The notes beneath the pieces were generated by a model. That model made no database searches. It saw only the letters and a list, made by a program, of their open reading frames with translations, and was not told the origin of the DNA. A stretch of 64,000 bases of DNA from an uncultured Alphaproteobacteria bacterium (GTDB taxonomy: Bacteria > Pseudomonadota > Alphaproteobacteria > Rhizobiales > Xanthobacteraceae). The stretch spans positions 172,587 through 236,586 of the forward strand of contig CAVUIV010000008.1 of the NCBI GenBank assembly GCA_963741595.1. The letters are read 5' to 3'. Made by a program: the position numbers and the translations under genes. Each line of letters starts with the position of its first letter. Within the stretch, counting starts at the first letter, position 1. This document shows positions 978 through 16,160 of the stretch, piece after piece.

Positions 978-1847
978 CTAAATCGGTTTCTCGCCTTTGA
1001 TCGCGACGCGGCGCATCAGGCGCCGTTCCTTGTCGCTGAAATCGGTGCGCGCGTGCAGCGTGCAGCGATTGTCCCACACCAGCACGTCGTTCGGACGCCA
1101 GACGTGCTCGTAGACGAAAGTCCGCTGTTCCTGATGATCGAACAGCGTGTTGAGAATCTCCCCACCTTCTTCGTCCGACAATCCCTCGACTGCAACCGTC
1201 ATCAGGCGGTTGACGAACAGTGCCTTGCGCCCGGTGACGGGATGCGTCCGCACGATCGGATGCCAGTATGCGGGCACGCCTTCACGCACCGTGGTGCCGC
1301 GGACGGTTGAAGCAACGTCATAGTCATAGGCGTTGAGCGCCTTGCGGCCGTCGATCTTTTGCTTGATGTCGGCGGGTAGCGTCTCGTAGGCGGTGTAGGC
1401 ATTCGCGAACAGCGTATTGCCGCCGACGCTCGGCACCTCAAGCGAGTAAAGCATCGTCGCCTTTGCCGGCCGCTCCTGATGGCATTGATCGGTGTGGAAC
1501 TGCATCTCGCCATCCGGCAGCGCGCCGATCTGCTTGCCGTCCTCGCGGATGTTCGAGATCAGCATGATCGCCGGATTCTTGGCCTGATAGTGGCCGCGCG
1601 TGCTCATGGAGATCGGCCCGAAGCGTTCGGCAAAACGGACCTGCTCGTCCTCGCTCAGATGCTGGTCGCGCAGCAGGATGACCAAGTGCTGGTGCCACGC
1701 ATGCAGCACGCTCGCGCACAGTTCGTCGCTCATCGGCGCGCTGAGGTCGAGCCCGATCAGTTCGGCGCCGAGCGCCGGCGACAAAGGCCGCACCTGAAAC
1801 GGCAGCGGGGAGGGCGCCGCGGCATCCGAAACATTGGCGAACGTCAT
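978..1847 (-). CDS. TauD/TfdA-family Fe(II)/2-oxoglutarate-dependent dioxygenase
   Basis: Intact 289 aa ORF. It has the HxD motif in GEMQFHTDQCH and the distal His/Arg region WDNRCTLHARTDF. Overall similarity is to taurine-dioxygenase-like proteins. Confidence 0.85.
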   Translation of the reverse strand: MTFANVSDAAAPSPLPFQVRPLSPALGAELIGLDLSAPMSDELCASVLHAWHQHLVILLRDQHLSEDEQVRFAERFGPISMSTRGHYQAKNPAIMLISNIREDGKQIGALPDGEMQFHTDQCHQERPAKATMLYSLEVPSVGGNTLFANAYTAYETLPADIKQKIDGRKALNAYDYDVASTVRGTTVREGVPAYWHPIVRTHPVTGRKALFVNRLMTVAVEGLSDEEGGEILNTLFDHQEQRTFVYEHVWRPNDVLVWDNRCTLHARTDFSDKERRLMRRVAIKGEKPI

Positions 1848-1913: not shown

Positions 1914-2513
1914 TCATCGCCGCGCGGCGGCAGCCTCGCGCCGGCGGGTGCGGGACGCAGCGATCGGCGTGGCGCTGCGGGCGACGCGCTTCGCCAGCCG
2001 CGCGATCTCCGATCCGTGGTTCTGGAAGTAGTGCCGAATCCAGTAGACGAACGCGTCGGGCTTTGTTGCGATGCGGCGCGCGATGTCGTCGGGGCTCGCG
2101 AATTCGACCTCGGACACCTCGGCGGGATCGGGATCGGGCTGCGCGACCAGCGGTCCAAAATAGACGTAGACGTATTCGTTCTCCTGCATCCCGCCGTCGA
2201 GGTCGGCGCGGTAGCGGCTGAAAAATCCGAACGTCAGCGGCGCGCTGATGCCGAGCTCCTCGGTGAGCCTTCGGCGCGCGGCGGTGAGCGTGCGCTCGCC
2301 TGGACGCGGATGGCCGCAGCAGGAGTTCGCCCACAAGCCGCCGGAATGATACTTCTCGCGGCTGCGCCGCTGCAGCACGATGCGCCCCTCGTGATCCACG
2401 ATGAAGATCGAGAACGCGCGGTGCAGCAGGCCGGCGCGATGAACATGTGTCTTCGTGCCGGTGCCGGTGGCGCGGTTTTGCTCGTCGACCAGGATCAGCC
2501 GTTCTTCAGCCAT
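1914..2513 (-). CDS. idi: Isopentenyl-diphosphate delta-isomerase, type 1 (Nudix)
   Basis: Intact 199 aa ORF with the motifs HRAFSIFIV, WANSCCGHP and ENEYVYVYFG, which are typical of type-1 IDI. Confidence 0.85.
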   Translation of the reverse strand: MAEERLILVDEQNRATGTGTKTHVHRAGLLHRAFSIFIVDHEGRIVLQRRSREKYHSGGLWANSCCGHPRPGERTLTAARRRLTEELGISAPLTFGFFSRYRADLDGGMQENEYVYVYFGPLVAQPDPDPAEVSEVEFASPDDIARRIATKPDAFVYWIRHYFQNHGSEIARLAKRVARSATPIAASRTRRREAAAARR

Positions 2514-2596: not shown

Positions 2597-3008
2597 CTAC
2601 CCTACAGCGGCGAGCTTCGCCGCCTTGGCCTTCAGCCGCTCCTTGGTCCGGGCGACGTCGACCACGAAGCGCGTGTGAGTGCCGGCGCTCACGGTGTCGA
2701 GCTCGTCCTTGGCCGAGACGTCGAACGTAACCTTGCGACCATCGACCGCCGTGACGCGGACCATGATCTCCACCGTGCTGCCGGCCAGTGTCGGCGCCAG
2801 ATGTTTCACCGCGACCTCCATCCCGACCGAGTTCTTCGCCGGGGTCGGCGTGGGCCACGATCAGGTCGCGGCAGGTGAATTCGATGTCGCCGATCAGCCG
2901 TGGCGTCGCATAGACGCGGGCATCCTCACCCATGAAGCCGATGGTTCGGTCGCGATCGATCTGGATACGCTTGACGGTCGACAATCCGGGCTGAAGGCTT
3001 GGCTTCAT
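2597..3008 (-). pseudogene. Hotdog-fold thioesterase (fluoroacetyl-CoA thioesterase-like), one frameshift
   Basis: The N-terminal part is in track ORF 2520..3023 (MKPSLQPGLSTVKRIQIDRDRTIGFMGEDARVYATPRLIGDIEFTCRDLIVAHADPGEE). The C-terminal part is ORF 2597..2821 (MEVAVKHLAPTLAGSTVEIMVRVTAVDGRKVTFDVSAKDELD...). There is a single 1-nt frame change near 2838. Confidence 0.7.
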
Positions 3009-3199
3009 GGTCTCTTCTCTCATGTCGTGGCGGTCAGGTTACGCCGTTCGCGCTGTGGTGACCACGGTCGAAGTGCCTGCGGCGCAGGCTTTGTCGCAGG
3101 GCTGCCGGCTTGGCGGGCAGCCGAAAGTAACCTAGGTTCCCGGCCACAACGGCGCGATGCACAAGCGCCGACCCGTTTCCACGGCCAGAGGAGCCCAAG

Positions 3200-4171
3200 A
3201 TGTCCCACCTGCGCGCCGCATTCGCTGCGCTAACCCTCACGATTCCATTCGCTCTTGCCGCGGGTGTCGCGATGGCGCAACCCACCACCCCGACGATGAA
3301 GTTCATCATTACGCATCCGGCCGGCGGCCTGCCTGATACGGTCGCGCGGATTGTCGGGCGGCGGATGCAGGAGCGTCTCAACCAAACCATCGTGGTCGAG
3401 AACCGCTCCGGCGCCAACGGCGGCATCGCCGTCAATGCCATGACCAGCGCGCCGGCCGACGGAACCACCTTCGTGGTTACCGACGGCGCGATCCTGTCGA
3501 TCAATCCGCAGCTCTATTCCAAGCTCTCGTACAACCCGAAGGACGTCGTGCCGGTCGCGGTGTTCGCCACCGCGCCGCTGTTCTTGGCGGTGCATCCGTC
3601 ATTGCCGGCGTCGACGATGCAGGAACTCATCGCCCACGTGAAGGCGAACCCCGGCAAATACAATATCGGATCGTCGGGCATCGGCAGCGTGCATCACATT
3701 TCTCTCGAAGCCCTGAAGATCGGGTTTGGCCTCCAGATCAGCCATATTCCGTACAAGGGCACCGGTGAGGCCGTGCCGGCGCTGCTGGGCGGGCACGTGC
3801 AGATGCTGTTCTCGGCTTATCCTTCGCTTGCCGGAGCAGCGGGAACGAAGCGCGTGACGCTTTTGGCGACCAACGGCACGACGCGCTCGTTGCAGGCGCC
3901 TGATCTGCCGGCGATCTCCGAGTTCATTCCGGGATTCAGCTACGCGCCGTTCGTCGGCATCTACGCGCGTGTTGGGACGCCGGCGGCCGTGATCGAGAAG
4001 ATCTCGGCGGAAGCGATGGCGATCGTGAAGGAGCCGGACATCGTCAAGCAATTCGCCAAGGTTGGCGTCGAGCCACTCGGCGGCGGTGCGGCCGAATTCC
4101 GCAAGCTGCTTGACGGCGAGATCGAGCGCGTCGCCAAGGTGGTCAAGGCGGCCAAGATCAAGGTGGAGTGA
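3200..4171 (+). CDS. Bug/TctC-family tripartite tricarboxylate transporter substrate-binding protein
   Basis: Intact 323 aa ORF with a signal peptide and the motifs NRSGANGGIAV, IGSSGIGSVHHISLE and HIPYKGTGEAVPALLGGHVQ. Confidence 0.85.
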   Translation: MSHLRAAFAALTLTIPFALAAGVAMAQPTTPTMKFIITHPAGGLPDTVARIVGRRMQERLNQTIVVENRSGANGGIAVNAMTSAPADGTTFVVTDGAILSINPQLYSKLSYNPKDVVPVAVFATAPLFLAVHPSLPASTMQELIAHVKANPGKYNIGSSGIGSVHHISLEALKIGFGLQISHIPYKGTGEAVPALLGGHVQMLFSAYPSLAGAAGTKRVTLLATNGTTRSLQAPDLPAISEFIPGFSYAPFVGIYARVGTPAAVIEKISAEAMAIVKEPDIVKQFAKVGVEPLGGGAAEFRKLLDGEIERVAKVVKAAKIKVE

Positions 4172-4211
4172 GCGGCAGATCGTATATCGCACGGAGCGCG
4201 GCGACGTCGTT

Positions 4212-5897
4212 CTACCGACCCGTCCGCGCCAGCGAATTCACCCATCCGTGCATGCGCGACTTGGCGTTGGCAATGTCCTGCTTGGTGAAGAACTTCTCCG
4301 GATTGACCTTGTCGATCGGATAGACCGGGCGCAGGAAGTCGCTCTCGTAGCCGAACGGTACGGTCGCATCGATACCCATGCCGCCCTCGAACTGCGTGTT
4401 CGAGGCGGTCCATTGCTTGTCGCCGGCGGTCATGCGCTCGGCCGGCATGAAGGTCTGTCCGCGGCCGCCGGGGATCGGATTGAGGATGTCGCTGCGTGGA
4501 TTGACGCGGGTCGTCAGGCACCACATCACGTCGTCCATCGAGTAAGGATCGACGTCCTCCGACACCGCGATGGCCAGCCGCATGCCCTGCGAGCAGGACA
4601 GCGCAGCGGCCATGAAGTTGCGCTGCCAGCCCTCGTCGATCTGGTGGCGCTTCTTCACCTGGATGATGCAGCCGCCCCAATCGGTCATGCAGTAAGGGAT
4701 CACCACGTTCTGCACGATGCCGGGCTGCAGCCGCTCGCACAGCTCGAAGATCGCGGCTTCGCGCACCGTCGTGTCGATGTTGTGGTCGTCGAGGGTGTGG
4801 ACGCCGAGCGCAAAGATGATCGGCTTGGTCTCGGGCTTGCGCATCGTCACCGCGGTGACGTGGAAGGTCGGCGCCTTGTAGGCCTTGCCCATGTAGCCGG
4901 CCCATTCCGGATGGAAGTGGAAGCGGCCTTGGATGCCGGCGTCCTCCGATTCCTTGGTCTCGAAGCGGCGATCGCGCGGATTGACGTAGCCTTCGAGCAC
5001 GAGCTCGGCATCGGCGAGCGCCATGGCATTCACCGTGCGCGCCTTCACCAGCCGGATCGGTGAGCGCTGCACAGCGCCCGCGATCCCGATCTCGTCGCAG
5101 CCCATCGGCAGCACCGCATAGTCGAACCCTGCACCCGCCATCAGCGTGCAGGCCGGCGGCACGCCGAAGCACATGGTGATCGGCACCGGCTCATTGGATT
5201 TGTAGTACTTGTTGACCACCTGCCACATGTGTGAGCCGGGCGAGATCTGGAACGTGCCGACATTGCCCCAGCGGAAGTTCATGCGGTTGTAACCGAGGTC
5301 GGAACCGCCATCGAATTCCGGCCCGGTCACGCAGCGGATACCAGAGCCGACCGTCAGTTCCGGCTCATAAGTCGTGTGCCGGATCGGCACCAGATACTTG
5401 TTGACGTCCTTCGGCTTGAGCACCACGTGCTCTTGCACCGGCGCTTCGTCTTGCGAGATCTCCACCGACTTGAGTGGCTTGCGCAACGCTTCGGCGAGCT
5501 TGCGCACGCGCTCGGCATCGGTCTTCCAGCCGAACATCTTGTTGATGACCGCCATGTCGCCGAACAGATTGGTGATGACGCGGTGGTTCGGCTTGCCCTT
5601 GACGTTGTGGAACATCACCGGGCAGCCGCCGTCCATGTGCTTTTGCAGGCCGGTCACTTCGAGGTCCGGATTGACCTCCTTGGTGGTTTCGATCAGGTCG
5701 CCTTGCGCCTTGAGCCACGCGAGCGTGCTGCGCAGGTCGTGTGCATGGTTGCTGGAAGGTGCAGTGACTTTGGCGGCCTTGCCGCTCTTCTTCGCCTTGG
5801 CGGCGAGCACCTTGTCTTTGCGGATGTGCCGTTGCATCAAGCCACGTCCCTGGTTGTCGGCGAAATCCCGACCGGTCGCCGATCGCGGACTTTGCAT
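4212..5897 (-). CDS. UbiD-family (prFMN-dependent) decarboxylase, divergent paralog
   Basis: Intact 561 aa ORF with UbiD-like organisation. The acid/base loop region reads QGRFHFHPEWAGYMG instead of the canonical EGPFGEhTGYY. The true start may be the internal MQRHIRK at about 5837. Confidence 0.75.
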   Translation of the reverse strand: MQSPRSATGRDFADNQGRGLMQRHIRKDKVLAAKAKKSGKAAKVTAPSSNHAHDLRSTLAWLKAQGDLIETTKEVNPDLEVTGLQKHMDGGCPVMFHNVKGKPNHRVITNLFGDMAVINKMFGWKTDAERVRKLAEALRKPLKSVEISQDEAPVQEHVVLKPKDVNKYLVPIRHTTYEPELTVGSGIRCVTGPEFDGGSDLGYNRMNFRWGNVGTFQISPGSHMWQVVNKYYKSNEPVPITMCFGVPPACTLMAGAGFDYAVLPMGCDEIGIAGAVQRSPIRLVKARTVNAMALADAELVLEGYVNPRDRRFETKESEDAGIQGRFHFHPEWAGYMGKAYKAPTFHVTAVTMRKPETKPIIFALGVHTLDDHNIDTTVREAAIFELCERLQPGIVQNVVIPYCMTDWGGCIIQVKKRHQIDEGWQRNFMAAALSCSQGMRLAIAVSEDVDPYSMDDVMWCLTTRVNPRSDILNPIPGGRGQTFMPAERMTAGDKQWTASNTQFEGGMGIDATVPFGYESDFLRPVYPIDKVNPEKFFTKQDIANAKSRMHGWVNSLARTGR

Positions 5898-5901
5898 TGC
5901 A

Positions 5902-5911
5902 TAGATATCTA
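5902..5911. promoter_or_regulatory. Perfect 10-bp palindrome TAGATATCTA in the AT-rich divergent UbiD/MarR intergenic region (candidate MarR operator)
   Basis: The palindrome is read directly from the sequence. It is the only AT-rich stretch between the divergent starts at 5897 and 6046. Confidence 0.25.
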
Positions 5912-6045
5912 AGTATTATTATGCCGGATCGGCCGAAAGGCTGTCAATCGCGGCATCCGGACATGCAACAGTCACTCGCGGGGCGCAAGGCAAACGGTGG
6001 CGCGGTTGGTCGCACAAGGCGGATGCGGCGGCCGCGGCCGGCGAT

Positions 6046-6477
6046 TTGCCGCACAACGAGAGCAGCGGATACTTGGTGCGCGACGCGCATCGCGCCTTCC
6101 AGCGGTTGCTGGAACGGCGGATTGCCCCGCACGGGGTGACGCGCGGGCAGTGGTACTTCCTGCGCGTGTTGTGGAGCGAGGACGGCCTCTCGCAGCGTGA
6201 ACTGTCGGCGCGCGTGGGGATGATGGAGCCCACCACGGTCATTGCGCTCCGCGGCATGGAGAAGGCGGGATTGATCCGCCGTGTCCGCAGCACCAACGAT
6301 CGGCGCGTGACCCATGTCCGGCTCACGGCCAAGGCCAAGCGCATGCGCGACGGCCTTTTGAAGCTCGCACGCGGCATCAATGCGCAGGCAGACCAAGGCA
6401 TTTCCGCCGGGGATATCGCGGTGTTCCGTCGCGTCATCATGCGGATGACGGAGAACCTGGATCAGATCGGGCAGTAG
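6046..6477 (+). CDS. MarR-family transcriptional regulator
   Basis: Intact 143 aa ORF with a winged-helix segment LSQRELSARVGMMEPTTVIALRGMEKAGLIRRVRSTNDRRVTHVRLT. Confidence 0.85.
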   Translation: MPHNESSGYLVRDAHRAFQRLLERRIAPHGVTRGQWYFLRVLWSEDGLSQRELSARVGMMEPTTVIALRGMEKAGLIRRVRSTNDRRVTHVRLTAKAKRMRDGLLKLARGINAQADQGISAGDIAVFRRVIMRMTENLDQIGQ

Positions 6478-6482
6478 CGACG

Positions 6483-8021
6483 CTACTCGCGGGCTTCGCG
6501 GTTCCAACGCTCCGCCAGCGCGCGGCGATCGAGCTTTCCGCGCTCGGTCTTCGGCAGCTCCGCGCAGAGCACGATACGCTTCGGTGCCTTGAAAGCGGGA
6601 AGGCCGTCGCTGCAATAGCGCAACAGCGCGTCCGTATCGATCGCGGCGGCCGGCCGCGCCACCACGTAGCTCACGACCTCCTCGCCATAGATTGCATCCG
6701 GCACGCCGACGGTCGCGACCTCGATCAGGGCAGGATGCTGCATCAGGAAACTGTCGATTTCGAGCGGTGAGATGTTGACCCCGCCGCGAATGATCAGATC
6801 CTTCGCGCGGCCGGTGAGACGGAGATATCCGTCCTCGTCGATCAGGCCGAGATCGCCGGTGAGCATCCGATTGCGACCGCTGACCGTCACGCGGCCATCG
6901 TCCGCCAGATAGCGGTAGTCGTGATCCGCAAAACCTCCAATCTCGACTTGGCCGATCTTGCCGCCGGTCGATCGGTTGCCCTCGCCATCGATGATGGCGA
7001 CATCGTGGTAGGGGAGCGGTCGGCCGACCGTTCCGTGCCGCCGCGACTCGCCCGGGATCGCTGCAATCCAGCCGGTCTCGCTCGACCCGTAACCTTGCGC
7101 GATCGGAATGCCGAAGCGCTCCTCAAAGCGGCGCCATTCCTCCACCGTAAGCGGCGCGGAACTCGATGTGATAAAGCGCAGCGTCGGCATGTTGTCGCGA
7201 TGTGCAGTCACGTCACCATTGAGCAGGATGTTGAGGGTGGTGGGATTGCCGGCGGCAACGGTGATCCGATGCTCGCGCATATGCGGGAAAAACCGGCTGG
7301 CGGAGAACTTCTGCGCCATCACCAGCGTCGCGCCACGGTTGACCGGCACCAGCGCTCCGAGGAGCTGGGCCGACGCCCAATTGAACGAACGAAAATCATA
7401 GACGCGATCGTCGGCGGTGATACCGAATCCGTCGGCGGCGGGATCGATGTTGAGCAAGTGCTCGCGATAGTTCAGCACCACGCCCTTGGGCTTCGCGCTG
7501 GTCCCCGAGGTAAACAGGATGACCGCATCGTCGCCCGGCCCTGCCTCGGTATGCGCATCCGACGGTGCGCACTGCGCCACCTCGCCAAAGAACGTATCGG
7601 CAGCCGGCGCGTCGGAGCGGCCCAGTCGCAAGCGCGGTACCGTGACCGCTGCAAGCAGGTCATCGAGCTGCAAGCCATCCTGATAAAGGACGAGCGCCGG
7701 CGAAAGCCGCTCAAAGATGTCGTCGAGCTGGTTGCGGTTCATCTCGACGTGGACCGTGCAGATGGTCGCGCCGTAGGCCATCACGCCGAAATAGCAAAGC
7801 AGGTGCTCCACTGAATTGCCGGCGAGCAGCGCAACGCGGTCGTTCGTGCGCAAACCCCGCTGGTGCAAGAACGTCGCGATCCGGCGGGTGACGTCGCGCA
7901 GTTCGCCATAGCTCACGGTGCGCCCATCGTCGGCGGAAACGACCCAGGGCTTGGCCGGATCGCGCGCGGCGGCGCGGACGATCCAATCTTGCAGGAGCTG
8001 TGGGCCGGCGGGTGTCGCCAT
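6483..8021 (-). CDS. AMP-forming acyl/aryl-CoA ligase (adenylate-forming family)
   Basis: Track ORF 6483..8057. Motifs present are LFTSGTSAKPKGVVL, GYGSSETG, TGDLGLIDEDGYLRLTGRAKDLI and a C-terminal PKTERGKLDRRAL. I prefer the ATG at 8021 (MATPAGPQLL), which has AAGG upstream. Confidence 0.85.
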   Translation of the reverse strand: MATPAGPQLLQDWIVRAAARDPAKPWVVSADDGRTVSYGELRDVTRRIATFLHQRGLRTNDRVALLAGNSVEHLLCYFGVMAYGATICTVHVEMNRNQLDDIFERLSPALVLYQDGLQLDDLLAAVTVPRLRLGRSDAPAADTFFGEVAQCAPSDAHTEAGPGDDAVILFTSGTSAKPKGVVLNYREHLLNIDPAADGFGITADDRVYDFRSFNWASAQLLGALVPVNRGATLVMAQKFSASRFFPHMREHRITVAAGNPTTLNILLNGDVTAHRDNMPTLRFITSSSAPLTVEEWRRFEERFGIPIAQGYGSSETGWIAAIPGESRRHGTVGRPLPYHDVAIIDGEGNRSTGGKIGQVEIGGFADHDYRYLADDGRVTVSGRNRMLTGDLGLIDEDGYLRLTGRAKDLIIRGGVNISPLEIDSFLMQHPALIEVATVGVPDAIYGEEVVSYVVARPAAAIDTDALLRYCSDGLPAFKAPKRIVLCAELPKTERGKLDRRALAERWNREARE

Positions 8022-8267
8022 CGTCAACCTTGGAGAATTGCTTAGCATTATAAGCATTGTGCGAGCGCCATGCCAACGGGTGGAGCGGCGGCAGCGATTG
8101 ACTGGGCCATCCCCAACACTGGCGGCGGAGGGCGCCGCAACCGCAGACCTTCAGGCACGCTTTAACTTTTGCTTCCGGGCAGCACCGCCTGTGTATAATG
8201 CCGGCGCCGGCGAGGCGTCGCGCCTCCCCGGATTCATCGTTCCGATCGAAGGTCTTGGGAGGACCGC

Positions 8268-9809
8268 GTGGCGAAGCAGGACGGTCAGCCGGATGGTATG
8301 TCGACCCCACTCGGGTCAGGGGGCGGCGGTGCGACGGGGTCTCCCGGCATCGGCTCCAACACGGCGCCCCATCTCGCCTATCACGACTTGCGGAAATGGC
8401 TGGAGGAAGCCGAGAAGCTCGGCGAGGTGAAGCACGTCAAAGGGCTGTCTTGGCAGAAAGACATCGGCATGGTGTCGGAGATGGCGGCGCATACTGACAA
8501 TGCGCCGTGCTTCGTGTTCGAGGACGTGCCCGGATCGTTGCCCGGCAGCCGCGTGCTGCTCAATTTCTTCGATGGCAAGCGCAAGAACATGACGTTGGGC
8601 TTCCCGACCGGGATGTCGAAGGTCGAGCTCAGCGAGGGCTTCCGCACCCACTATGCCGCCGACATGAAGCGGATCCCGCCGAAATACGTCGAAACCGGTC
8701 CGGTGATGCAGAACGTGCTCACCGGCGACCAGATCGACATCACCAAATTTCCGGCGCCGCAGTGGCACGCCAAGGATGGCGGCCGCTACATTGGCACTGG
8801 CTGTTACACCATCATCCGCGATCCGGACGATGGCTGGATCAACTGCGGGACCTACCGCGTCATGATTCACGACGCGAATTCCTGCGGGCTCTACATCTCG
8901 CCGGGAAAACAGGGCCGGCAGATGCGCGACAAATACAAGGCGCGCAAACAGCCGATGCCGATCGCCGTTGTTCTGGGCGGCGATCCGATGAGCTTTCTGA
9001 TGGGCTGCAGCGAGATTCCGCAAGGCGTCAGCGAATTCGAGGTCATCGGCGGCATGCGCGGTTCGCCGGTCGAGGTGATCAAGGGGCCGGTGACCGGTCT
9101 GCCGATCCCGGCCAATGCCGAAATCGTCATCGAAGGCTTCGTCGAACCCGACAACATGCGTGTCGAAGGTCCGTTCGGAGAATGGACCGGCTACTACGCA
9201 ACCGGCGCAGCGCAGGAGCCGGTGCTCGACATCAAGGCGATCTACCACCGCCATGAGCCGATCTTGCTCGGCTGCGTGCCGGAGCGGCCGCCGGACGAGA
9301 TCTGCCGCTACCGCGCGATCGTGCGGTCGGCGCTGCTGCGCGAGAACATCGCCAAGGCGGGCGTGCCCGCGGTCACGGCGGCCTGGGCGCACGAGGTCGG
9401 CAACGCGCGGCTGTTGCTCGCGGTTGCGGTCAACCAGCGCTATCCCGGCCACGCGAAGCAGGCCGGGCACATCGCGTCGATGTGCCATGTCGGCGCTTAT
9501 TTCGGTCGCTACACGATCGTGGTCGATGACGATATCGACGTGTCCGACATCAACTCCGTGCTGTGGGCGTTGCTCACGCGGTCCGACCCGGCCACCTCGA
9601 TTGAGATTATCCGCGGCGCCTGGTCGACGCCGCTTGATCCGCGCATCGAGCCGGAGCGCCGGGCGGTCGGCGATTACACCAACAGCCGGGCGGTGATCGA
9701 CGCTTGCCGCCCGTACCACTGGAAGGATCAGTTCCCCGAGGTTAACGCCCCGTCGCCGGAGGATAAGGCCTTGGCAATCCGCAAATTCGGCCACTTGTTC
9801 GAGAACTGA
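8268..9809 (+). CDS. UbiD-family (prFMN-dependent) decarboxylase, canonical type
   Basis: Intact 513 aa ORF with the canonical loop VEGPFGEWTGYYA. It is transcribed divergently from the CoA ligase and is followed by ubiX. Confidence 0.85.
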   Translation: MAKQDGQPDGMSTPLGSGGGGATGSPGIGSNTAPHLAYHDLRKWLEEAEKLGEVKHVKGLSWQKDIGMVSEMAAHTDNAPCFVFEDVPGSLPGSRVLLNFFDGKRKNMTLGFPTGMSKVELSEGFRTHYAADMKRIPPKYVETGPVMQNVLTGDQIDITKFPAPQWHAKDGGRYIGTGCYTIIRDPDDGWINCGTYRVMIHDANSCGLYISPGKQGRQMRDKYKARKQPMPIAVVLGGDPMSFLMGCSEIPQGVSEFEVIGGMRGSPVEVIKGPVTGLPIPANAEIVIEGFVEPDNMRVEGPFGEWTGYYATGAAQEPVLDIKAIYHRHEPILLGCVPERPPDEICRYRAIVRSALLRENIAKAGVPAVTAAWAHEVGNARLLLAVAVNQRYPGHAKQAGHIASMCHVGAYFGRYTIVVDDDIDVSDINSVLWALLTRSDPATSIEIIRGAWSTPLDPRIEPERRAVGDYTNSRAVIDACRPYHWKDQFPEVNAPSPEDKALAIRKFGHLFEN

Positions 9810-9886
9810 CCAAAGTGGTAACCACTGGCTAGTACCGTTACCCGGGCGAGCCCACCTCGGTTCACCCGGACTGGAGAGGACTTTCG

Positions 9887-10510
9887 ATGCGACGCCTTAT
9901 CATCGGCATGACCGGGTCGACCGGCGCTATCTTCGGCGTGCGTTTGCTGGAGGCCTTGAAGCAGGCCGGCGACGTCGAGTCGCATCTCGTCATCAGCAAG
10001 TGGGCGCAACGCACCATCGAGCACGAGACCAATTACACGGTCGAGCAGGTGAGGGCGCTCGCAAGCGTCGTGCATTCGCCGGGCGACATGGGCGCGACGC
10101 TCTCCTCAGGCTCCTTCCTGACCGAGGGGATGGTGGTGATCCCATGCTCGGTGCGAACGCTGGGCGGCATCGCGCAAGGGGTTGGCGACCATCTCGTGCA
10201 TCGTGCCGCCGACGTGGTGCTCAAGGAGCGGCGCAAGCTTGTGCTGGTCGTGCGCGAGACGCCGCTCTCCGAGGTGCATCTCGAGAACATGCTCAAGCTG
10301 TCGCGCATGGGCGTGGTGATGCTGCCGCCGATGCCGGCATTCTACAATCATCCGCAGTCGGTGGACGACGTGGTCAATCACATCGTCATGCGCGTGCTCG
10401 ACCAGTTCGACATTTCGGCGCCGAACGCCAAGCGCTGGGACGGCCACATGCATACCGCGGCCAAGATCGTCACGGTGCCGACCGGGCAGGCGACCAAGAG
10501 CGGCACGTAA
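9887..10510 (+). CDS. ubiX: UbiX/Pad1 flavin prenyltransferase (prFMN synthase)
   Basis: Intact 207 aa ORF with the motifs RLIIGMTGSTGAIFGVRLLE, VIPCSVRTLGGIAQG and LVLVVRETPLS. Confidence 0.9.
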   Translation: MRRLIIGMTGSTGAIFGVRLLEALKQAGDVESHLVISKWAQRTIEHETNYTVEQVRALASVVHSPGDMGATLSSGSFLTEGMVVIPCSVRTLGGIAQGVGDHLVHRAADVVLKERRKLVLVVRETPLSEVHLENMLKLSRMGVVMLPPMPAFYNHPQSVDDVVNHIVMRVLDQFDISAPNAKRWDGHMHTAAKIVTVPTGQATKSGT

Positions 10511-10516
10511 CCCCTC

Positions 10517-11259
10517 TCACTTTTCGCCATAGGTCGATTTCGAGATGTCCGGCACCGAGAGGCCGCCGTCGATCGCCTTGCAGCGAGCATCCTCGGCCCT
10601 CGCCTTCTTCTCGGCCTCTTCGAGCACTTCCATGATCTTGTCGCGCGGGATGAAGCAGACGCCGGTGTCGTCGGCGACCACCAGATCGCCGGGGTGCACC
10701 TGCACGCCGCCGATCATGACCGGGCCGTTGATCTCGGCCGCCTCGATCCGCCATTTGCCGGTGACCGGCGTGATGTCGCTCGCCCAGATCGGATAGCCGA
10801 CCGCGCGCTGAATGCGCGATGTCGCGGATGCCGCCTTGCACGATGGCGCCGACTTCGCCCTGGCGCTTGCCGGTCTGCGCCGAGTTGCCGCCCATGTTGG
10901 AGATGTTCGGCACGCCCTCGATCACCAGGACGTCGCCCGGCTGTCGCGAGGTTGTGACACTCGAACTCGGCCATCTTGTTGACGTGGTCGCGCGCGCCGG
11001 CGAGCGGGTCGATGCGTTGCAGGATGTTGCGGAGGGTCAGCGCCGGCCCGACCATGATGGTGCCGGGCATCGTCGGCTTGAGCACCGACGCGCCGACCGC
11101 GCCGAGCGGGATGCCGAGCTCGTCCATGGTGTCGGAGATGACGCCGGTGCAGTCGCCGAGCTTCTTGAAGCGCTCGACCACGCCGGCGGGCGGGCGCGGC
11201 ACGTCCATCATCTTGATTTTTTCCCGCGCGATGCGGCCGGTCAGTTTTTTCTCTGCCAT
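10517..11259 (-). pseudogene. RraA / 4-hydroxy-4-methyl-2-oxoglutarate aldolase-family protein, at least 2 frameshifts
   Basis: Three fragments: ORF 10714..11259 (MAEKKLTGRIAREKIKMMDVPRPPAGVVERFKKLGDCTGVISDTMDELGI...), a middle part in the 10470..10925 frame (VIEGVPNISNMGGNSAQTGKRQGEVGAIVQGGIRDI), and ORF 10517..10717 (MIGGVQVHPGDLVVADDTGVCFIPRDKIMEVL...). Confidence 0.7.
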
Positions 11260-11278: not shown

Positions 11279-12274
11279 TCAATCCAATTGAATCTTTGCG
11301 TTCTTGATGACCTTTGCGAGGCGCGCCGTTTCGCGCTCAATATGCGCCCGGAACTGCGCCGGCGTATTGCCGACCACGTCAGCGCCTTGGTCGGACATCT
11401 TGGCGCGCAGCGTTTGATCCTTGAGCACGTCGATCGTGTTGGCGTGCAGCAGGTCGACAATGGCCTGCAGGCGTCTTCGCCGGCGCCAGCAGGCCGAACC
11501 AGGTCCCGGTCTCGTAATCGAGGCCGCCTTCCTTGAAGGTCGGCACATCCGGCAGGAGCGGCGACCGCTTGTCGGCGGCGATCGCGATCGGCTTGAGATT
11601 GCCGCTTGCGCACCAGCGACAGGCACCGGCAACACGCTCGCGAACAGCATCTGCACTTGATTGCCGGTGACGGCGATGGCGGCCGGGCCGCCGCCGTTGA
11701 ACGGCACGTGCACGATGTCGGCGCCGGTCATCGACTTGAACAGTTCGGTCGCGAGATGCGGACCCGAGCCCGCGCCATAGGAGGCGTAGTTGAGCTTGCC
11801 GGGATTGGCCTTCACATACGCGATGAATTCGGCCAGCGTGTTGGCGGGGAACGACGGATGCACCACCAGCATCGTCGGCGCGTTGGCGAGCAGCGAGATC
11901 GGCACAAGGTCGGTGGCGGGATCGTATCCGAGCTTGCGGTAGAGCGACGGATTGGCGGCGATCCCGAGGCTCGCCATCACCAGCGTGTAGCCGTCGGGTT
12001 TCGCCTTGGCGACGAGCTGCGTGCCGAGATTGGTGTTGGCGCCGGGGCGGTTGATCACCACGAAGCTCTGTCCGAGCTGGCGCGCCAGCCCATCGGCGAA
12101 GAGCCGCGCCAGCACGTCGGTGCCGCCGCCGGCCGCGAACGGCACCACGATTTCGACCGTCCGAGCGGGGTATTTGTCCTGCGCTGCGGCCGGCGGCAAC
12201 CAGGCGGTGGCCGAGGCGGCAGCAGTTGCTATCGCCAGGAGAAGGGGTGTGAAACGGGGATAATAAAAGGTCAT
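11279..12274 (-). pseudogene. Bug/TctC-family substrate-binding protein with a compensating frameshift pair
   Basis: Track ORF 11279..12379. It starts at MTFYYPRFTPLLLAIATAAASA and has good Bug sequence up to about 11640 and again from about 11460 (AIVDLLHANTIDVLKDQTLRAKMSDQG...). The roughly 180 nt in between are out of frame. Confidence 0.75.
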
Positions 12275-12489
12275 ATCAAATCCGCTTGATCGTCGGTGCT
12301 GTGCTGTCGATTGCGCGCGGACGGTGCCATTGTCAACACGGTGCGACAACCGCGCCTGCTTGCCGGCTCGTGTTCGCACCGGTACCGTACCGTGGCGGCC
12401 TTATCTGTAGCAAAGGCTCATTCCGATGATCGATTTCTAGGGGTGTCCGAGAGATTTCGCATGTCGCGCATAGCGTCGGTGAGGCAAGA

Positions 12490-13542: not shown

Positions 13543-13575
13543 AACACCCCGATCGTGGTACCGCGGGAGGATCTG

Positions 13576-14392
13576 TTGGACATCAAGGGTAAGGTTGCCG
13601 TCGTCACCGGAGCGAGTTCGGACGAGGGCATCGGGACGGAATGCGCGAAGATTCTGGCGTCGCGCGGTTGCAACGTCGTGGTCAACTACGCGAGCAACAA
13701 GGCCGGCGGCGAGGCGATCGTCGCGGCCTGCAAGGCGGCGGGCGCCGACGCCATCGCGGTGCAGGGCGACGTCTCGAAGGACGAGGATTGCCAGCGGCTG
13801 GTGCAGGCCGCGATCGACAAATGGGGCCGGCTCGACGTCCTCGATCAACAATGCCGCCACCACCAAGCCGATCCCGCACAAGCGCATGGACCTGCTCAAC
13901 GCCGACGAGTTTCAGCGCATCTTTGCCGTCAACGTCATCGGCACCTATCAGATGACGCGCGCGGCTGCGCCGCATCTCAAGAAGACCGGCGACGCGCGCC
14001 ATCGTCAACATCTCGTCGGTCGGCGCGATGCGCGCCGGCGGTTCGTCGATGGCCTATACCGCGTCGAAGGCGGCGATCAACAATCTCACGCTCTCGACCG
14101 CGCGCGCGCTGGCGCCGGAGGTGCGGGTCAATGCGCTGTGTCCGGGCGGCATGCTCGGCCGCTGGACGCGCAAAATCCTCACCGAGGAGCAGTATCAGGA
14201 GCGGCTCAAGGCGGCGGCAAGTCGCAATATCCGCTGAAGCGCGGCATCTGGCCTTATGACGTCGCGGTCGCGGCGCTGTTCCTGGTCGAAGGCGCGACCA
14301 CGATGACCGGCGAGTGCATCCGCATGGATTGCGGCCAGCACCTCGGCGAGACCAGCACGCAATCGGCGGCGGCGGCGACCCGCGGCGCGTGA
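13576..14392 (+). pseudogene. SDR-family oxidoreductase, about 3-4 frameshifts
   Basis: The fragments run KGKVAVVTGASSDEGIG... (ORF 13555..14259), then LINNAATTKPIPHKRMDLLNADEFQRIFAVNVIGTYQMTRAAAPHLKKTGDA (13349..14392 frame), then MAYTASKAAINNLTLSTARALAPEVRVNALCPG (ORF 14028..14237), then YPLKRGIWPYDVAVAALFLVEGATTMTGECIRMDCGQHL. A TTG start at 13576 follows GGGAGG. Confidence 0.75.
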
Positions 14393-14459
14393 TCGCTGCG
14401 CTAGACGACGATCCGATCTAGTTGACTCGGATCGTCGCCCGGAATGATCATGCGCTGCG

Positions 14460-14816
14460 TCAACTCAGGCTCCCGATGCAGGTCTGCACGAACTCGCGCA
14501 GCTTCTTGCCTTTGAGATTGTCCTGCTTGCCCTGTCGATGCTGGCATTCCTTCTGCGCCTTCGCCGCCTTCTTCGCCGCCGCTCTTCGCTTCAGCCTTGC
14601 TTTCTCTTCCGGCGTCATTGCCTTCGTTTCGCTCGCGCTCTTCCTTCAGCTTGGCTTTTTCTTCGGCGGTCATAGCCCCTTCTTCGCTTTCGTTGCCGGC
14701 GCTGGTCCTGTCCGGCTGGCGGCGCTTGTTCCGTCTGCGATTGGGCATAGCTGCACGCTGCCGAGGCCGATCGGCAACGAACCGCGGCGATCAGAAGCGT
14801 GCGCGAGACGAGGCAT
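14460..14816 (-). pseudogene. Small Lys/Glu-rich secreted protein, PsiF-like C-terminus, frameshifted
   Basis: My own three-frame reading gives a signal-like start MPRLA.., then TAEEKAKLKEERERNEG, then in another frame MTPEEKARLKRRAAAKKAAKAQKECQHRQGKQDNLKGKKLREFVQTCIGSLS*, which is a PsiF-repeat-like C...GK..LKG...FV..C pattern. Confidence 0.3.
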
Positions 14817-14963
14817 GACGCTCTCCATGGTATTGTGGGAATTGATCGACTGTGATTGTCGTGAGATTGTTGCGAACGCAGTCTGCCAGACGAAGCCATA
14901 CAGCACCGCTATTGCAGCAAAGCGTTGCCGGCAGAGCCGTCGAATCTGGCAGAACTGCGACAT

Positions 14964-16160
14964 TTATGCCGCCGCTACACTCGGCGGCACCGGGCTGCTT
15001 GAACTCCTTGAGCCGCGGCAGGATTTCCTTGGCCAGCAGCGTGAGGCTGTCGCAGGTGTCCTCGTGGTTGAGGAAGCCGGCCTGCGCCATCACCAGCAGG
15101 TTGCTCATGCCGCCGGTGTATTCGATGAAGTCCTTGATCTGCTGGTAGCACTGGTCGGGCGTGCCGCAGACCATCAGCACGGAGTCGATCAGGTCCTGCA
15201 GGCTGCCGGTGCGCATGTCGATGACGCGGCCGTCCTTGGTGAAGCTGCGCGTCCGGCGTCATGCCGCGCATCAGCCGCACGTTGTCGTCGACCGAGAGAT
15301 AGCCGGGCGGATTCTTGAACGGCGGATAGACGTTGGCGCCGGTGCGCAGATAGCCGGCGACCAGTTCGCCGCGCCGGCGCGCCTCGGCCTCGTTGTGCGC
15401 GGTCGCGAACAGCGCGAGATAGGCGAAGCGGTCGCGGCCCGGGCATCGCGCCGTTGTGGGTCGACGCATAGCCTTCGCGATAGGCGTCGAACAGCGCCTT
15501 GGTGGCGTAGCCCGAGCCCAGGATCGCCATCACATAGCCGCGCTCGCCGAGCACGCGCGCATTGGTCTTGCTGGCGGTCGTGCTCCACACCGGCGGATGC
15601 GGCTGCTGCCACGGCCGCGGCCAGATGTTGACCTGCCGGTAGTGGAAGTGCTCGCTCTCCCAGTTGAACGGCCCGTCATGCGTGGTCATCGCCTTGATGA
15701 TGAAGTCGTGCGATTCCCAGAAGCGGTCCATGACGCCGACCGGATTGGCATTCGACGGCGCGAACTCGTACGGCACGCCCTTGATGAAGCCCATGTCGAG
15801 CCGGCCGCGCGAGATCACGTCGATGGTCGACGAGCTCCTCGGCGCAGCGCAGCGGATCGGGCCGGTGCCCGATCGGATAGCCGAGGATCAGGATGCGCGC
15901 GCGCTTGGTCTGCCGCGCCAGCACCGACAGGCTGACGATCGACGTCGAGTTCATGCAGGTCGCGGTCTGGTGATGCTCGTTGAGCATCAGGTCGAGACCG
16001 AGCTCGTCGGCCAGCAGGTATTCGTCGTGATAGCGATGGAACAGGTCGGCGGCGCGCTTGGGATCGCAGCGCCCGGTTGGGCAGGTCGACGCGCAGATAG
16101 CCGTGCGGATCGTTCCAGGCGTCGGGATAGGGATGCTCGCTGAAATGATAGATCTCTCAT
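14964..16160 (-). pseudogene. LLM-class (luciferase-like) flavin-dependent monooxygenase, at least 5 frameshifts
   Basis: The pieces are spread over ORFs 15676..16680, 15189..15818, 14975..15469 and 14791..15216. Examples are DLFHRYHDEYLLADELGLDLMLNEHHQTATCMNSTSIVSLSVLARQTKRARILILGYPIG, ISRGRLDMGFIKGVPYEFAPSNANPVGVMDRFWESHDFIIKAMT and GSLQDLIDSVLMVCGTPDQCYQQIKDFIEYTGGMSNLLVMAQAGFL. The ATG at 16158..16160 overlaps the upstream stop (ATGA), but the EIYHFSEHPYPDAW frame is already shifted. The 3' end is uncertain. Confidence 0.75.

Follow-up and report, generated by a model that had tools for sequence, protein, structure and literature searches.

Denitrifying bacteria activate phthalate with a succinyl-CoA:phthalate CoA transferase, and Desulfosarcina cetonica does so with an ATP-dependent ligase (PMC13040137, PMC9516798, PMC8269228). 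The transferase of Aromatoleum aromaticum EbN1 has been shown experimentally, according to a review, and ligase-dependent activation is known in a sulfate reducer (PMC13040137); the purified enzyme with which D. cetonica ligates phthalate to CoA (PCL; gene JCM12296_RS19390) is reported to be stable in air (PMC9516798). The very unstable product, phthaloyl-CoA, is captured by an abundant phthaloyl-CoA decarboxylase (PCD), for which UbiX supplies the prenylated flavin mononucleotide (prFMN) (PMC13040137, PMC9516798, PMC8269228). Here, we describe a locus of different composition in a stretch of 64,000 nucleotides (the window) from an uncultured alphaproteobacterium of the family Xanthobacteraceae (assembly GCA_963741595.1, contig CAVUIV010000008.1, positions 172,587 to 236,586). 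It encodes two UbiD-family proteins, UbiD-1 and UbiD-2, together with a UbiX, an AMP-forming acyl-CoA ligase, a MarR regulator, and a Bug receptor. We consider it likely that the locus directs a ligase-dependent route from o-phthalate to benzoyl-CoA that feeds the Box pathway.

A 2020 paper by Ebenau-Jehle et al. reportedly deals, by its title, with denitrifying bacteria that degrade phthalate aerobically by a hybrid pathway through phthaloyl-CoA, and that pathway is said to use a CoA transferase and to belong to facultative Betaproteobacteria. The window locus resembles it in that phthaloyl-CoA and PCD would be joined to the oxygen-dependent Box pathway. It differs in having a ligase, in its occurrence in Xanthobacteraceae, and in the physical joining of Box genes to the cluster in relatives such as genome G119. 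With the clusters of EbN1 and Thauera chlorobenzoica, the locus shares an orthologous PCD and a UbiX that is 70% identical to the EbN1 protein, and the plasmid phthalate region of EbN1 also has an annotated idi gene, for isopentenyl-diphosphate isomerase, and an extra UbiD. However, the gene order on EbN1 plasmid 2 is UbiX-PCD-CoA transferase-CoA transferase-TAXI/TRAP, with activation by a two-subunit family-III CoA transferase, an IclR regulator, and TAXI-TRAP or ABC transport, whereas the window has the AMP-forming ligase, MarR, and a tripartite tricarboxylate transporter (TTT) receptor of the Bug type. The window locus is also chromosomal, with no transposases at hand, and the only recognisable benzoyl-CoA sink in its genus is Box, instead of benzoyl-CoA reductase. 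As in D. cetonica, an ATP-dependent ligase would make phthaloyl-CoA for capture by PCD, and the window ligase adjoins PCD, its orthologues in a family sample being confined to PCD-bearing genomes (17 of 17). In contrast, D. cetonica is an obligate anaerobe with reductive benzoyl-CoA degradation, and deltaproteobacterial PCDs form a clade separate from the proteobacterial clade that holds the window PCD (PMC8269228).

The initial annotation of this DNA had guessed at a UbiD acting on a CoA thioester, with an activating enzyme and a UbiX, and had called the unit an undescribed variant. The first guess proved stronger than proposed, since UbiD-1 is a close PCD orthologue. The second stands in part: ligase activation and an aerobic hybrid route are each known, but our literature search found no description of an alphaproteobacterial PCD that is combined with a ligase of this family, with MarR and a TTT receptor, and with Box, or of the breadth of that combination in uncultured soil and sediment lineages. 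What appears to be novel is a ligase-type PCD module with Box in Xanthobacteraceae, widespread in uncultured relatives.

A phthaloyl-CoA decarboxylase orthologue

The families, open reading frames (ORFs), and strands listed by the initial annotation (Bug, UbiD, MarR, AMP-binding ligase, UbiD, UbiX, and an RraA-like protein) were confirmed with Pfam and NCBIfam models (Table 1). When both UbiD proteins were compared with characterized members, UbiD-1 went to PCD and UbiD-2 to PhdA, both with solved structures. Residues 53 to 561 of the long UbiD-1 ORF align without a gap to the solved T. chlorobenzoica PCD (8pmk, 8oz5) over 509 residues, with an E value of 6e-276, and the next UbiD subfamily among all solved structures, AroY, reaches 160 bits. 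UbiD-1 is 75% identical to the EbN1 PCD and has the N, Rift, and C domains of a three-domain UbiD, and UbiX is encoded alongside it. By sequence comparison, UbiD-1 is a phthaloyl-CoA decarboxylase orthologue.

The two UbiD proteins had been noted to differ at the active-site loop, and they do: UbiD-2 has EGPFGEWTGY, and UbiD-1 has QGRFHFHPEWAGYMG, the same as in the solved PCD. The PCD-type loop IQGRFHFHPEWAGYMGKAY takes the place of the canonical E-x4-E in UbiD-1 and in the solved enzyme alike. Different substrates, one of the two explanations first offered for the difference, held up. The other, a non-catalytic partner, was rejected, as the odd loop of UbiD-1 is the signature of the PCD family and UbiD-2 retains the E...R...E residues. 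The gene for UbiD-1 was confirmed on the minus strand, and its start was revised. The ATG at 5897 falls inside the putative operator described below, about 20 nucleotides past the -10 box, and the ATG at 5837, which gives a protein of 541 amino acids, is for this reason the more likely start.

Relatives of PCD were sought in one genome per GTDB species and confirmed at 580 places. The best 80 of these, 83 to 95% identical and referred to below as the related loci, come nearly all from metagenome-assembled genomes (MAGs) of uncultured Xanthobacteraceae or Alphaproteobacteria; their neighboring genes were obtained by calling ORFs and clustering them. A family sample of 200 Xanthobacteraceae genomes in 62 genera held PCD in 26 genomes and in 10 of the 62 genera, the genus count taking in the source genome. 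The latter is a soil or sediment MAG of 29 contigs and 4.5 Mb, with an estimated completeness of 62%.

The source genome (G000) contains another PCD-like gene, 72% identical to the window PCD and scoring 850 bits against the solved enzyme. Directly after it lies a gene for an AMP-forming ligase of another type, frameshifted and 31% identical to the window ligase (contig C20:70787-72340 and 72508-73995; L083:12764-14344 and 14431-15972). The two may be another CoA-ester decarboxylation pair, possibly with another substrate. A different Xanthobacteraceae genome carries an EbN1-type cluster, Idi...UbiX-PCD-CoA transferase-CoA transferase (L089; G052:C1:104000-123999). Its PCD is 94% identical to that of the betaproteobacterial plasmid, which indicates a recent transfer between classes.

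An AMP-forming ligase in the place of a CoA transferase

Of the 80 related loci, 55 have an orthologue of the window ligase (58 to 91% identical) no more than 10 kb away from PCD, and in most cases the two genes directly converge. In the family sample they occur in 17 of the 200 genomes, all of which have PCD, though one as a broken remnant, and in 14 of the 17 the two genes are on one contig within a few kilobases. Sister loci with the same upstream genes and near-identical PCDs have two family-III CoA transferases where the ligase would be; they match the subunits of the EbN1 succinyl-CoA:phthalate CoA transferase at 61% and 58% identity. In a quick tree of PCD, in which two long PCD2 branches are unreliably placed, ligase-type and transferase-type loci are interleaved in one well-supported clade, and some sister pairs differ by about 0.02 substitutions per site. 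This interleaving around a nearly unchanged PCD indicates that the activating enzyme has been swapped repeatedly. The transferase pair is absent from the window, and with the EbN1 subunits and their Xanthobacteraceae orthologues as queries the best match in the source genome was at most 35% identical.

Among the 17 UbiD-family loci of the source genome, only the two PCD-like genes have an AMP-forming ligase of their own adjacent to them; UbiD-2 has the ligase of PCD within 3 kb. Among solved structures, the ligase is nearest to oxalyl- and malonyl-CoA synthetases, which are dicarboxylate enzymes, although the similarity is moderate, and its homologues are named generically throughout in public records. 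These homologues are about 512 amino acids long, and the alternative start at 8057, giving a longer ORF, lies upstream of the predicted -10 box, so that the start at 8021 first assigned, for a protein of 512 amino acids, is correct. The ligase is most likely a phthalate-CoA ligase that makes phthaloyl-CoA.

Regulatory sequences

The PCD gene is preceded by a near-consensus promoter, TTGACA-18-CATAAT (5947-5918, minus strand). The palindrome TAGATATCTA at 5902-5911 occurs once in the window, versus 0.03 occurrences expected. A MarR gene is directly upstream of PCD and divergent from it in 48 of the 80 related loci, and the block CTTAGAnATCTATG is kept in 40 of these 48 intergenic regions, with the consensus ATAAT-ACTTAGAAATCTATG-yAATGG. 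A site just downstream of the -10 box is the classic position for a MarR repressor. The palindrome has that position. We take it as the likely, still putative, MarR operator; MarR probably controls PCD. Upstream of the ligase there is a promoter, TTGGCA-18-TATAAT (8076-8047, minus strand), and its -10 box is overlapped by an inverted repeat, GCTTA-N6-TAAGC, that is related to the PCD operator repeat. Of 56 loci, 11 carry a related motif upstream of their ligase gene, compared with a 2% background.

The proposed pathway and the fate of benzoyl-CoA

From the identities of the genes, their order, their distribution, and their motifs, we infer the following enzymatic steps, effector, and role of Idi. 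Uptake of phthalate would probably be helped by the adjacent Bug/TTT receptor. The ligase would then spend ATP to convert phthalate to the very labile phthaloyl-CoA, which PCD would turn into benzoyl-CoA with prFMN from the neighboring UbiX, and the adjacent Idi may raise the supply of prenyl phosphate for that cofactor. Benzoyl-CoA would enter the oxygen-dependent Box pathway. MarR, bound at the conserved palindrome, would keep the PCD promoter repressed for as long as no effector (either phthalate or a CoA ester) is present.

BoxB and BoxC are encoded together on contig C27 of the source genome (G000:C27:7077-10088), where BoxB scores 672 bits, above its cut-off, and BoxC matches in three pieces. 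In the family sample, BoxB is present in 24 of 26 other PCD-bearing genomes. The genes for BoxC, BoxB, Idi, PCD, and the ligase are contiguous in G119, in that order, with a similar adjacency in G073. A B subunit of class-I benzoyl-CoA reductase was looked for and not found in the source genome and in two others of its genus, each at least 98% complete, though the reductase is also present in some other genera with a ligase-type cluster. With Box genes present and the reductase subunit unfound, a hybrid route from ligase to PCD to Box is the most economical reading for this organism.

Several observations weigh against this route. In the source assembly, BoxB is spread over two frames and BoxC over three, and BoxA was not found in the four genomes searched with TIGR03224. 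Gene absences in the source genome are weak evidence in any case, because of its estimated completeness. PCD is oxygen sensitive, which fits awkwardly with a downstream pathway that is obligately aerobic. No close relative of the ligase has been characterized, with the generic NCBIfam fatty-acyl, malonyl, and oxalyl models all below their cut-offs, and in those related loci that have UbiD-2 the ligase is divergently paired with it.

The PCD-like enzyme and the ligase could instead act on some other natural 1,2-dicarboxy- or 2-carboxy-substituted (hetero)aromatic acid, such as a substituted phthalate, a quinolinate-type acid, or a benzene-polycarboxylate, with phthalate as a side substrate. The 580 places with PCD, mostly in uncultured soil Xanthobacteraceae, are a broad distribution for a purely xenobiotic substrate, and the second PCD-like gene with its different AMP-forming ligase suggests diversification of substrates. 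The source genome also has many UbiD-family and TctC-family loci. However, the match to the characterized PCD is gapless and very strong, the active-site loop is the same, and sister loci hold orthologues of the phthalate-specific CoA-transferase subunits by near-identical PCDs. We regard a different main substrate as unlikely.

UbiD-2, UbiX, and Idi

The best solved relative of UbiD-2 is the phenazine-1-carboxylate decarboxylase PhdA of Mycobacterium fortuitum, aligned over 457 residues, with which it shares the catalytic Glu loop. Its catalytic residues are canonical (Glu/Arg/Glu, in EGPFGEWTGY and GTYR), and PCD, at 60 bits, is among its most distant relatives. UbiD-2 is no more than moderately similar to PhdA, its neighborhood showed no phenazine genes, and, unlike PhdA, UbiD-2 belongs to a multi-paralogue subfamily, whose members in the source genome are 55 to 64% identical to one another. 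The NCBIfam collection gave no equivalog for UbiD-2, the ligase, or the Bug receptors. UbiD-2 is most likely a catalytically competent, free-acid prFMN decarboxylase, distinct from a PCD subunit, and its substrate would be a free (hetero)aromatic acid imported via a TTT receptor.

Genes of the UbiD-2 type (at least 66% identity) are present in 13 genomes of the family sample. Neither PCD nor the ligase occurs in five of these, where the UbiD-2-type genes adjoin TTT receptors or UbiX. These five genomes led us to reject UbiD-2 as a PCD subunit or as a strictly co-inherited companion. In EbN1 (NC_006824.1, L092), the extra UbiD at 74091-75605, between an ABC transporter and a porin, is 64% identical to UbiD-2, and idi is at 82613-83182; we know of no role assigned to either gene. 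The extra UbiD and UbiD-2 are not necessarily orthologues, as several paralogues of the subfamily here are 55 to 60% identical.

It is improbable that the ligase serves UbiD-2, acting on its substrate or product, with phthalate activated by an unlinked enzyme. The two genes do diverge from a shared region of 246 bp, most of the 28 loci with UbiD-2 among the 80 related ones have it beside the ligase, and UbiD enzymes other than PCD that decarboxylate CoA esters exist, such as isophthaloyl-CoA decarboxylase (PMC13040137). But many loci consist of PCD and ligase without UbiD-2, UbiD-2 comes after the CoA-transferase pair in locus L051 and, in L007, after the second transferase gene, and the solved enzyme closest to it decarboxylates a free acid. 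The five genomes with UbiD-2 and neither partner gene tell in the same direction.

We return to the proposed phthalate activation by the ligase, in which PCD would draw its cofactor from UbiX. Only one copy of UbiX was detected in the source genome, as a single tblastn match. The nearest solved relatives of the Idi protein are IDI structures, and the motifs CCGHP and ENEY are present. In 19 of the 80 related loci, a gene of the Idi cluster is found no more than 10 kb from PCD. Idi neighbors UbiD2-UbiX in G014, is directly beside PCD in G015, G073, and G119 (in the last, between BoxB and PCD), and is near the EbN1-type PCD cluster in G052. In the family sample, an Idi-type gene occurs in 20 of the 26 PCD-bearing genomes and in 23 of the 174 others, a comparison that is not an independent-sample statistic because the genomes are related. 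It is a reasonable inference that Idi supplies dimethylallyl diphosphate, and hence dimethylallyl monophosphate, for the synthesis of prFMN. A full-length gene for a TauD/TfdA-family 2-oxoglutarate dioxygenase (window 978-1847, minus strand) adjoins Idi and is syntenic in the closest relatives at 83 to 90% identity.

The genome of a member of the same genus that lacks PCD (G014) has Idi, the thioesterase, one unrelated gene of 275 amino acids, and then UbiD2-UbiX, an arrangement that replaces window positions 3009-8353, where the first Bug receptor (Bug1), PCD, MarR, and the ligase sit. From this order, Bug1-PCD-MarR-ligase behaves as an inserted cassette of about 5 kb beside the only detected UbiX, next to what would be a resident Idi ... 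UbiD2-UbiX unit. Bug1 is syntenic beside PCD only in the closest relatives (81 to 89% identity), and it is a candidate binding protein for phthalate uptake. With 17 UbiD-family loci, 168 Bug/TctC-family loci, and one UbiX, the source genome has an unusually large repertoire of prFMN-dependent decarboxylases.

Flanking genes and integrity of the locus

Table 1. Features of the window locus, with positions in the window
Feature	Position	Strand	Evidence
Bug/TctC receptor (Bug1)	3200..4171	+	Pfam TctC 1.7e-57, full length
PCD orthologue (UbiD-1)	4212..5837	-	919 bits versus solved T. chlorobenzoica PCD
PCD promoter and palindrome	5902..5947	-	Promoter scan 11/12; palindrome TAGATATCTA
MarR regulator	6046..6477	+	Pfam MarR 2.4e-12
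AMP-forming acyl-CoA ligase	6483..8021	-	Pfam AMP-binding and AMP-binding_C, full length
Ligase promoter and inverted repeat	8047..8076	-	Promoter scan 11/12
UbiD-2, PhdA-like	8268..9809	+	7pda 356 bits; EGPFGEWTGY loop
UbiX flavin prenyltransferase (prFMN synthase)	9887..10510	+	NCBIfam UbiX models above cut-offs
RraA/HMG-CHA-aldolase-like gene, interrupted	10523..11259	-	Intact orthologue: Pfam RraA-like 3.7e-27
Second Bug/TctC receptor (Bug2)	11279..12379	-	Pfam TctC, profile positions 1-161 only
FlK-type hot-dog thioesterase, one frameshift near 2838	2636..3008	-	Orthologue: Pfam FlK 1.8e-31
Type-1 isopentenyl-diphosphate isomerase (Idi, Nudix fold)	1914..2513	-	PRK03759 162.8 bits versus cut-off 127

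The last gene of the unit, the RraA-like gene first delimited at 10517-11259 (minus strand), had been called the only broken one, and it does hold a stop, the six core genes being intact. It runs through three frames, with two 1-nucleotide insertions relative to three orthologues. Four DNA runs yielded only short contigs, from short reads, of related populations, covering at most 26% of words, and were informative at one indel site, where the contigs lack one base at 10809-10812 in the RraA-like gene. By blastx, the thioesterase matches its orthologue in two frames, the first covering residues 1-56 and the second residues 58-124, and Bug2 has an out-of-frame segment at 11466-11633. A flanking SDR (short-chain dehydrogenase/reductase) gene is frameshifted too. 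Window positions 13564-14356 are also among the frameshifted flank stretches; over these stretches and the Box genes the density of frameshifts is high, and the core genes are intact. Since BoxB and BoxC are likewise in several frames in the same long-read MAG, indel error is at least as likely as decay, and we lean toward assembly error over true decay. That the whole locus is in decay and no longer functions would agree with the frameshifts in the thioesterase, RraA-like, Bug2, SDR, BoxB, and BoxC genes, but it is very improbable, given that the six core genes and Idi are unbroken across more than 7 kb and 76 to 97% identical to their syntenic orthologues, that promoter and operator are conserved, and that the frameshift pattern fits assembly indels in an incomplete MAG of many contigs, the short-read contigs of relatives lacking one of the extra bases.

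The RraA/HMG-CHA-aldolase-like gene recurs directly after UbiX in other loci (such as L020, L030, L059, and L061), often with a GST (glutathione S-transferase) gene next. It neighbors both ligase-type and transferase-type clusters and has no obvious place in a route from phthalate to benzoyl-CoA. A subgroup of the related loci (L049, L056, and L062, for example) shares a conserved set of genes about 3 to 9.5 kb upstream of PCD, in front of MarR-PCD: a PQQ (pyrroloquinoline quinone) dehydrogenase, Idi, a PaaK-like ligase (624 bits, just below the cut-off), an FlK-type thioesterase, PurC, a DpgC-like cofactor-independent acyl-CoA dioxygenase (434 bits), and an NMT1/SsuA-type binding protein. This set may be an arylacetyl-CoA dioxygenase module.

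Implications

A wider view, speculative and rather doubtful on present evidence, is that decarboxylation is the general means by which these Xanthobacteraceae of soils and sediments attack polycarboxylated aromatics. Enzymes of the UbiD-2 type would remove surplus carboxyl groups from free acids, for instance benzene-tricarboxylates of pyrogenic or humic origin or trimellitate plasticizers, until phthalate is left, which the ligase and PCD would pass on to Box. One UbiX with its linked Idi would then serve all 17 UbiD paralogues, with the 168 TTT receptors at their side, and the repeated linkage of idi with UbiX would dedicate a supply of prenyl phosphate to making prFMN in bulk.

Phthalate from plasticizers is a major pollutant, and the phthaloyl-CoA route has been regarded as a specialty of a few denitrifiers and sulfate reducers. 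A highly conserved PCD is found at hundreds of places in genomes of GTDB species, often with the previously unnamed ligase and Box genes. Should the ligase indeed make phthaloyl-CoA from phthalate, biotechnology would gain a candidate ATP-driven substitute for the transferase, and the ligase together with PCD would give a marker gene pair for environmental surveys. The exchange of ligase and transferase would then be a natural experiment on the handling of the most labile CoA ester known. The linkage of idi and UbiX, for its part, bears on the bacterial source of dimethylallyl monophosphate for prFMN.

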